A DNA stretch of 9,861 bases, taken from a virus (Duplodnaviria; Heunggongvirae; Uroviricota; Caudoviricetes). How positions within the stretch are numbered: the first letter of the stretch is position 1; every line of letters starts with the position of its first letter. This document shows positions 9,253 to 9,861 of the stretch, one piece after another. The DNA is taken from the IMG/VR virus record IMGVR_UViG_2529292920_000001, positions 1 to 9,861 of that record; one strand, 5' to 3'. The notes beneath the pieces were generated by a model, which did not search any database, was not told the DNA's origin, and saw nothing but the letters and a program-made list of their open reading frames with translations. A program made the position numbers and the translations under genes.

Positions 9253-9861
9253 TCAAGACCGAAGAACAATAAAGAATGAAAGCATGGAGCCAATCAGCGT
9301 CATAATCACCCTGAAAGTGGCCCTGACTTCATCGGTATCAAGCAGCACACAAAAAGTATCCAGTTGATAATCTTTATTCCAGATATTGAATGTAAAGACA
9401 GGACACTGCCCCCGTGGAATTGTCAGTGAAAAATCACGCGCAGAAGGCCACATATTCCACAATGGAGAAATGAATGATGAAGGCTCAGGAGATGAAATAT
9501 CAGGCGTATCCACTGAAGGTGCAGTGCCAAAGTCATTTGACACAGTCACGTTAACATTTACCGTAGCATTACCTGTTACAGTGGTACTGCCAGAACCTGT
9601 TCCGACTCCAGCTCCTGTACCGCTACCCGTTCCAGTGCCTGTACCCGTTCCAGTGCCTGTACCCGTTCCAGTGCCTGTACCCGTTCCAGTGCCTGTACCC
9701 GTACCGCTGCCTGTACCCGTACCGCTGCCTGTACCCGTACCGCTGCCTGTACCCGTACCGCTGCCTGTACCCGTACCGCTGCCTGTACCCGTACCACTGC
9801 CTGTACCCGTACCGCTGCCCGTACCTCCAACGGGCTTAAAACCGGGGTCAATAACAGGAGG
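9253..9861 (-). CDS. Filamentous-phage pIII-like adsorption protein, C-terminal part (5' partial, continues beyond the window end)
   Basis: The frame of the listed 9253-9549 ORF stays open upstream through the repeat array to the window end; hand translation gives [22 protein letters not shown]...(GT)n...[18 protein letters not shown]-terminus has a hydrophobic anchor ([18 protein letters not shown]). A Gly-rich linker plus C-terminal membrane anchor is the g3p architecture. Confidence 0.55.
9607..9825. repeat. About 12 tandem copies of an 18-bp unit in two subtypes, inside the pIII-like gene
   Basis: Unit gcctgtacccgttccagt at 9637, 9655 and 9673; unit gcctgtacccgtaccgct at 9691, 9709, 9727, 9745, 9763 and 9799, with a one-base variant at 9781; degenerate copies at both ends. 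On the coding (-) strand the units encode GTGTGT and GTGTGS hexapeptides. Confidence 0.9.

Follow-up and report, generated by a model that had tools for sequence, protein, structure and literature searches.

The gene in the gene III position of an inovirus prophage of Escherichia coli carries an array of near-identical 18-bp units that encodes a long linker of alternating Gly and Thr or Ser, and the length of this array varies in frame among closely related genomes. The window, i.e., the whole stretch of 9,861 nucleotides of an IMG/VR virus record that was analysed, contains the 3′ part of this gene at its right end. The feature combines two known kinds of element, being both a linker between domains of an inovirus tip protein and a variable-number tandem repeat within a coding sequence. 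The array is likely to encode a disordered tether whose length turns over in frame by slippage and unequal recombination, and which is probably drifting in length.

The repeat array and its reading frame

The main array occupies positions 9624-9825 of the window and was detected by Tandem Repeats Finder with a period of 18, 11.2 copies, 96% matches, no indels and a score of 306, compared with scores of 40 and 69 for the two remaining arrays of the window. The coding strand is the minus strand, on which the frame entering at 9861 is open as far as the stop codon at 9253-9255. Translation in the Gly-Thr frame gives, in order, KPVGG, (TGSGTG)n, (TGTGTG)n, and then a linker tail followed by a C-terminal part that ends in hydrophobic residues. 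The whole linker (9592-9828) consists of one Gly codon and 39 Gly-Thr/Ser/Ala/Val hexamers, the latter encoding 39 dipeptides (78 residues) at 9592-9825. Written in hexamer types, the array of the window reads B E / BAF / (BAE)x5 / BADC / (ADC)x3 / G A H I J K, and its subdivision into two blocks of 18-bp units and a degenerate end is given in Table 1 together with the surrounding features. The first-pass annotation had described about 12 copies of two unit subtypes encoding roughly 70 residues of Gly-Thr/Ser, which is essentially right; the coordinates it had given, 9607-9825, are also essentially right, except that the array reaches about 15 nt further toward the C-terminal side.

Table 1. 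Features of the window that bear on the array and on the prophage carrying it.
Feature	Position	Strand	Evidence and remarks
dif-like site, 27 of 28 bases identical to E. coli dif	6336-6363	minus	Left prophage-chromosome junction; 0 of 200 shuffles match
pIV-like secretin	6623-7882	minus	Pfam Secretin (1.9e-25) and Secretin_N
pI-like assembly ATPase, Zot family	7879-8937	minus	Pfam PF05707 (6.1e-23)
pVI-like DUF2523 gene, truncated to 67 aa	9032-9235	minus	Pfam DUF2523, 21.0 bits (just below the 22.1-bit cut-off); PHROG 974 'minor head protein' (4.3e-19)
pIII-position gene, 3′ part (last 202 codons and stop), running off the right window end	9253-9861	minus	Open frame; intact RefSeq homologues
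C-terminal domain, 112 aa, with conserved Cys-x18-Cys pair	9256-9591	minus	PHROG, Salmonella and UTI89 homology
Spurious AVRVQA-repeat ORF, out of frame, 91 aa, TTG start	9576-9851	minus	Second frame of the same strand; stop-free by-product of the repeat
Gly-X linker, whole low-complexity tether between N-terminal region and C-terminal domain	9592-9828	minus	Translation and hexamer decomposition between fixed anchors
Degenerate, non-repeated linker end, 6 hexamers	9592-9627	minus	Identical in the 30 genomes and contigs except L006, whose linker tail is without its first hexamer
All-Gly-Thr 18-bp unit block, GGTACA GGCACT GGAACG (GT-GT-GT)	9628-9705	minus	4 units in the window; 1-11 in relatives
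Gly-Ser-containing 18-bp unit block, GGTACG GGTACA GGCAGC/T (GT-GT-GS)	9706-9825	minus	7 units in the window; 4-10 in relatives

The gene carrying the array

Full-length homologues of the array protein are 519-573 aa long, and their RefSeq coding sequences (1560-1722 nt) are all intact and annotated 'hypothetical protein'. The layout of a 537-aa homologue comprises a signal-peptide-like N-terminus, an N-terminal region of ~320 residues, the linker and a C-terminal domain of 112 residues. The N-terminus of this homologue, MSFLKNISVSLLYVLLTNHACA/ETA, is Sec-signal-like in appearance and corresponds to a part of the gene that lies beyond the end of the window. At the other end of the protein, the last ~22 residues (9256-9321) form a hydrophobic segment, to which a two-residue tail is added. 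A hydrophobic C-terminal anchor with a very short tail is also present in the Salmonella, UTI89, D_HF5_61 and Dulem virus proteins and in f1 g3p.

The two ends of the protein have very different sets of relatives in the databases that were searched. The C-terminal domain matches the C-terminal ends of PHROG families 3942 (1.3e-14) and 7187 (6.6e-10), is 38% identical to that of a Salmonella enterica prophage homologue, and can be aligned over its entire length with the protein in the pIII position of the UTI89 dif-region prophage (E = 4e-14). The family of the N-terminal domain is small, with 9 relatives in a set of 1.84 billion representative proteins. In a word-indexed protein search, the full-length protein deprived of its repeat retrieved two clusters of partial proteins and nothing else, and the C-terminal domain alone retrieved zero matches.

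Gene order and identity of the protein

The genes are arranged in the order coat-like gene, array gene, DUF2523/pVI-like gene, Zot/pI gene and secretin/pIV gene, so that the array gene has the position of inovirus gene III. In full-length relatives, the protein encoded upstream (82 aa) gives a hit to PHROG 2186 'virion structural protein' (2.4e-14) and a weak one to inovirus coat protein B, while a replication protein and a regulator are encoded still further upstream.

Direct comparison with characterised proteins was less informative. A Pfam search with the array protein gave no match, nor did the comparison of a C-domain profile with PDB sequences, and the PDB sequences retrieved with the full-length protein were all artificial Gly/Ser linkers or other chains of low complexity. 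BLASTP of the C-terminal domain against f1 g3p residues 335-406, a sequence that was checked against PDB 8b3o, also gave no match. With hhalign, only the Cys-Cys hairpin in front of the terminal hydrophobic helix aligned to f1 g3p (E = 0.41). The AlphaFold2 models of the C-terminal domain (single sequence, pLDDT 43) and of the N-terminal domain (two sequences, pLDDT 40.8) are both unusable. Significant homology of the C-terminal domain is limited to the pIII-position proteins of other uncharacterised inoviruses. The proposal that the Gly-Thr/Ser linker belongs to a pIII-like gene is nevertheless supported by gene order, topology and relatives, even though direct homology to Ff g3p is not demonstrable. 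As judged from the sequences, the label 'pIII-like' is well supported by gene context and topology, but homology to the type protein does not establish it. The product is best regarded as a putative adsorption or tip protein.

The other morphogenesis genes show some variation of their own. In the window, the DUF2523 gene carries a 1-nt deletion (A4 to A3) near 9048, and its intact span would be 8949-9235 (95 aa). Among 24 sequences, only the window has this deletion (0 of the 23 related genomes), which may be either a sequencing error or a sign that the window holds a defective prophage copy. The pI/Zot gene contains a 9-bp in-frame repeat, GACGGCGAA, present in 2.2 copies at 8126-8145; it is polymorphic, L009 and L024 having one copy fewer (coding sequence of 1050 nt vs 1059 nt). 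Decayed prophage copies are found in L024, where an IS21-family element lies within the secretin gene (3036-5002), and in L011, where the secretin gene is split into two coding sequences (2524-3783).

Array length polymorphism among strains

The segment between two fixed anchors was compared in the window, 24 complete E. coli genomes and 5 IMG/VR contigs (n = 30). It occurs as 27 alleles in 13 length classes, with 181-343 nt between the anchors and 30-57 Gly-X dipeptides. Lengths always differ by a multiple of 6 nt and mostly by a multiple of 18, and the frame is preserved in 30 of 30; nine of the 13 length classes correspond to the length of the window array plus or minus whole 18-bp units. 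The length polymorphism by in-frame gain and loss of units that the first-pass annotation had predicted is confirmed by these alleles, and the contrary outcomes were looked for and not found: copy number is not invariant across relatives, and the frame is interrupted in no homologue, all RefSeq coding sequences being intact. In some alleles, Gly-Ser units reappear as a second block behind the Gly-Thr units, a sign of unequal exchange involving larger segments in addition to single-unit slippage.

The adjoining flank of 2969 bp is more than 99% identical among these sequences; 37 of its sites vary, and two sequences differ on average at 5.7 of them. Pairs that have 0 or 1 differences in the flank still differ in the array, as exemplified by L001/L008 and L006/L010. 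The same array is found in the three tandem prophage copies of L017 and, likewise, in two sister isolates. Some alleles recur across independent assemblies (L004 = L032 and L028 = L031), and rare unit variants are common to subsets of the genomes, such as the L-type unit of L004, L030 and L032.

The array also leaves a trace in draft genomes. The L025 contig (3137-4315) stops inside the gene, and draft assemblies end within the repeat. Most of the 162 and 184 members of the protein clusters P0001 and P0002 are annotated 'partial', because short-read assemblies break at the array.

Linkers of related proteins

Among the single-step differences between hexamer types, 11 of 13 affect the third codon position and are synonymous in the Gly-Thr frame; the other two are one Thr/Ser exchange and one singleton change of Gly to Asp. 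More distant relatives have the peptide without the DNA units. A second E. coli lineage (P0002 type), with 64% identity in the N-terminal domain, has linkers of Gly-Thr that are 73, 79 and 107 aa long and encoded by a 12-bp unit (GGCACC GGAACA); the N-domain DNA of this second-lineage variant gave no match in a megablast search of complete E. coli genomes. In the Salmonella enterica homologue, the linker at this junction consists of 77 aa of G-T/A/S/D and is encoded by a 54-bp unit. As far as these sequences indicate, the conserved entity is the peptide composition rather than the DNA units, the two distant lineages using other units.

The junction accommodates linkers of other kinds as well. 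In the UTI89 prophage protein it is occupied by a short stretch rich in Asn, Gly and Ser, and in two deposited inoviruses by Pro-rich stretches; none of these contains a tandem repeat. The occurrence of such varied low-complexity linkers at one junction indicates that it is a generic interdomain linker site, of which the Gly-Thr array is a lineage-specific, repeat-encoded version.

The prophage and its surroundings

Similarity to prophage-free E. coli genomes stops at position 6362, and since the dif-like site lies at this point, the prophage is integrated at dif. Integration at dif has also been described for CTXphi, CUS-1 and YpfPhi (PMC4266046). The same morphogenesis module is present in 27 of 5,426 complete E. 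coli genomes, with at least 98.7% identity. This module, from the coat-like gene through the secretin gene, occurs on two backbones (L001 12464-15435; L016 25571-28542; L017 1-27161). The first backbone is located between ybiB and hcxB and carries a GPA-type replication endonuclease together with an IS110-family transposase. The second has a 'replication initiation factor', lies in the dif region beside hipBA and is present in at least 4 tandem copies of ~7,980 bp.

Relatives outside this set are scarce. Deposited phage genomes gave no match to the morphogenesis module (megablast) or to the N-terminal domain (tblastn), and the best Zot match among them is 39.5% identical. When one genome per bacterial species was scanned, the pIII alignment found no relative, and the Zot alignment found a single match, on a 3-kb contig of a metagenome-assembled genome. 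From these comparisons, the phage of the window appears to be an inovirus distinct from CUS-1/YpfPhi and to belong to a rare E. coli/Salmonella lineage that is so far undescribed.

Beside dif, positions 1-6330 of the window hold a defence and integrase island. It includes two effector genes of retron Ec78, namely ptuA, which is truncated where the window begins, and ptuB (923-1573). An HTH gene lies at 2451-2783, and integrase-like genes occupy 3512-6252. Relative to strain 2017-02-1CC (L044), the window is without ~2.6 kb in a 'hypothetical protein, 2367 nt' and a 'site-specific integrase, 1551 nt'. In this prophage-free strain, a gene for a 'TolA C-terminal domain-containing protein' is located just past dif (L044 11645-12736). 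TolA is the usual co-receptor of filamentous phages.

Proposed mechanism and alternative explanations

In the mechanism that we favour, a disordered Gly-Thr/Ser tether would join the N-terminal region, presumed to be receptor-binding, to the C-terminal domain that would anchor the protein in the membrane and the virion. The near-identical 18-bp units, each made of three Gly-X codon pairs, would be gained and lost by slipped-strand mispairing, and larger blocks of the array would shift through unequal recombination. Because the tether is encoded by such near-identical units, its length would change faster than point mutations build up, and always in frame. Folded as single-stranded DNA, the array shows no unusual structure (z = -1.55), so simple repeat misalignment would suffice to account for its mutability. 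Selection would retain the alternation of Gly with Thr or Ser and, apparently, also a minimum length, the figure of 30 dipeptides for this minimum being based on 30 samples. Within the range of ~60-114 Gly-X residues, which at ~0.35 nm each would correspond by our own estimate to a contour length of ~20-40 nm, tether length probably drifts. By analogy with the glycine-rich linkers of Ff g3p, the tether would set the reach of the N-terminal domain, and its length may affect receptor binding or infectivity. Most of the length variation is presumably near-neutral. Near-neutral drift above a minimum length is rated first, as the most likely reading, and adaptive tuning is its main rival.

According to this rival, the array is an adaptive contingency locus in which length switching tunes the reach of the domain (to the depth of O-antigen or capsule) or the host range, and selection keeps the diversity. 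Such a role would agree with the extreme diversity of the array (27 alleles in 30 genomes and contigs), with the retention of a long Gly-Thr linker in three lineages despite the turnover of its DNA, and with the fact that no array of fewer than 30 dipeptides was seen among the 30 sequences. It also has a structural analogue in the 18-bp Ser-Asp stalk of ClfA/Fbl, whose copy number affects adherence (PMC6533592). However, the mutability of a perfect repeat accounts for the diversity without selection, and the identity of the array in three tandem copies and in two sister isolates implies that switching is not fast on short timescales. Array length also shows no apparent link to integration site or host background. 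We therefore consider an adaptive contingency locus unlikely. The related proposition that three lineages keep a mutable, repeat-encoded linker since mutability itself is selected, length switching adapting reach or host range, seems to us quite unlikely. It is a very unlikely proposition that the Gly-Thr/Ser run serves beyond spacing, as a target of O-linked modification or in direct binding to the host surface: Thr or Ser does occupy every second position, in a pattern strongly conserved across lineages, yet the 7-8-kb prophage has no glycosyltransferase or other modifying gene, and the Pro-rich or Asn/Gly/Ser-rich linkers that relatives have at the same position argue that spacing is the shared requirement.

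Two further explanations would do away with the polymorphic tether itself. If the length differences were assembly artefacts of a perfect repeat, the true array would be invariant, and short-read assemblies do indeed fail at the array, as seen for L025 and for the 'partial' cluster members. The compared records, however, are complete and mostly long-read genomes, all 30 arrays are in frame without a single error of 1 or 2 nt, the order of SNP-marked unit types is consistent with lineage and the same alleles recur in independent assemblies, which leaves an artefact highly improbable. It is still harder to maintain that the Gly-Thr frame is untranslated, whether because the true product comes from the AVRVQA ORF or because the region is non-coding, and we regard this as extremely improbable. 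A 91-aa ORF does exist in the second frame of the same strand, but in every homologue the Gly-Thr frame runs on without a break into the conserved N- and C-terminal domains, and distant homologues keep Gly-Thr with other codons. Variation between units is synonymous in the Gly-Thr frame only, and no homologue is annotated in the AVRVQA frame, in agreement with the initial view that this ORF is misleading.

Significance of the locus

Current understanding is not overturned by these results, the locus being polymorphic but unsurprising in kind. The tether is, nonetheless, among the longest and most variable seen in proteins of the tip type. The natural series of 30-57 dipeptides provides material for testing the role of tether length in filamentous-phage entry, which is still only proposed for f1. 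From a practical standpoint, the array is a typing marker that tells apart strains with identical 3-kb flanks, and also an assembly breakpoint that has left the tip-protein gene 'partial' in hundreds of draft genomes.

Comparison with known systems

The g3p protein of the Ff phages (f1/fd/M13) shares with the array protein a repeat-encoded, flexible, low-complexity tether that connects N-terminal receptor-binding domains to a membrane-anchored C-terminal domain, as well as the position of the gene in the phage genome. Both proteins also have a pair of Cys residues just ahead of the C-terminal hydrophobic helix, spaced as Cys-x18-Cys in the array protein and as Cys-x16-Cys in f1 (354-371) (PMC10175506). 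In f1 g3p, flexible glycine-rich linkers connect N1-N2 with the C domain and are invisible in cryo-EM, and it has been proposed that the L2 linker (up to 14.8 nm) gives the C domain access to the inner membrane with N1-N2 still bound to their receptors (PMC10175506). The two systems differ in linker sequence, GGGS/EGGGS in Ff vs strictly alternating Gly-Thr/Ser here, and in arrangement, two shorter linkers in Ff vs one long linker (~63-117 aa) here, and searches found no significant similarity in sequence between Ff g3p and the array protein. To our knowledge, hypervariability of the linker between isolates has not been described for Ff.

The Ser-Asp R region of staphylococcal ClfA/Fbl resembles the array in being built of 18-bp units that encode three dipeptides and vary mostly synonymously. 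The copy number of fbl ranges from 9 to 52 between strains, and the region forms a flexible stalk whose length affects adherence (PMC6533592). ClfA/Fbl is, however, a Ser-Asp cell-wall adhesin, an unrelated protein of an unrelated organism, which makes the resemblance one of design and not of homology.

CUS-1 of E. coli K1 and YpfPhi of Yersinia pestis are, like the prophage of the window, dif inovirus prophages, often in tandem and with the same gene order (PMC4266046). CUS-1 and YpfPhi share ~99% identity over 7.1 kb (PMC4266046). The comparison was made with the UTI89 prophage, taken as CUS-1-like by its position and gene order and not from the published CUS-1 sequence. Its pIII-position C-terminal domain is homologous to that of the window protein (E = 4e-14), but DNA identity is ~71% over ~170 nt only, the N-terminal domains are unrelated and there is no Gly-Thr array. 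Membership of the window phage in the CUS-1/YpfPhi group was considered and is ruled out by this limited identity and by the unrelated N-terminal regions.

The period protein of Drosophila has an alternating Thr-Gly run with in-frame length polymorphism in natural populations. It is a eukaryotic clock protein, however, and the peptide motif is its sole relation to the array. Altogether, the closest known system is the set of Ff g3p linkers by function, the ClfA/Fbl stalk by design, and CUS-1/YpfPhi by lifestyle.
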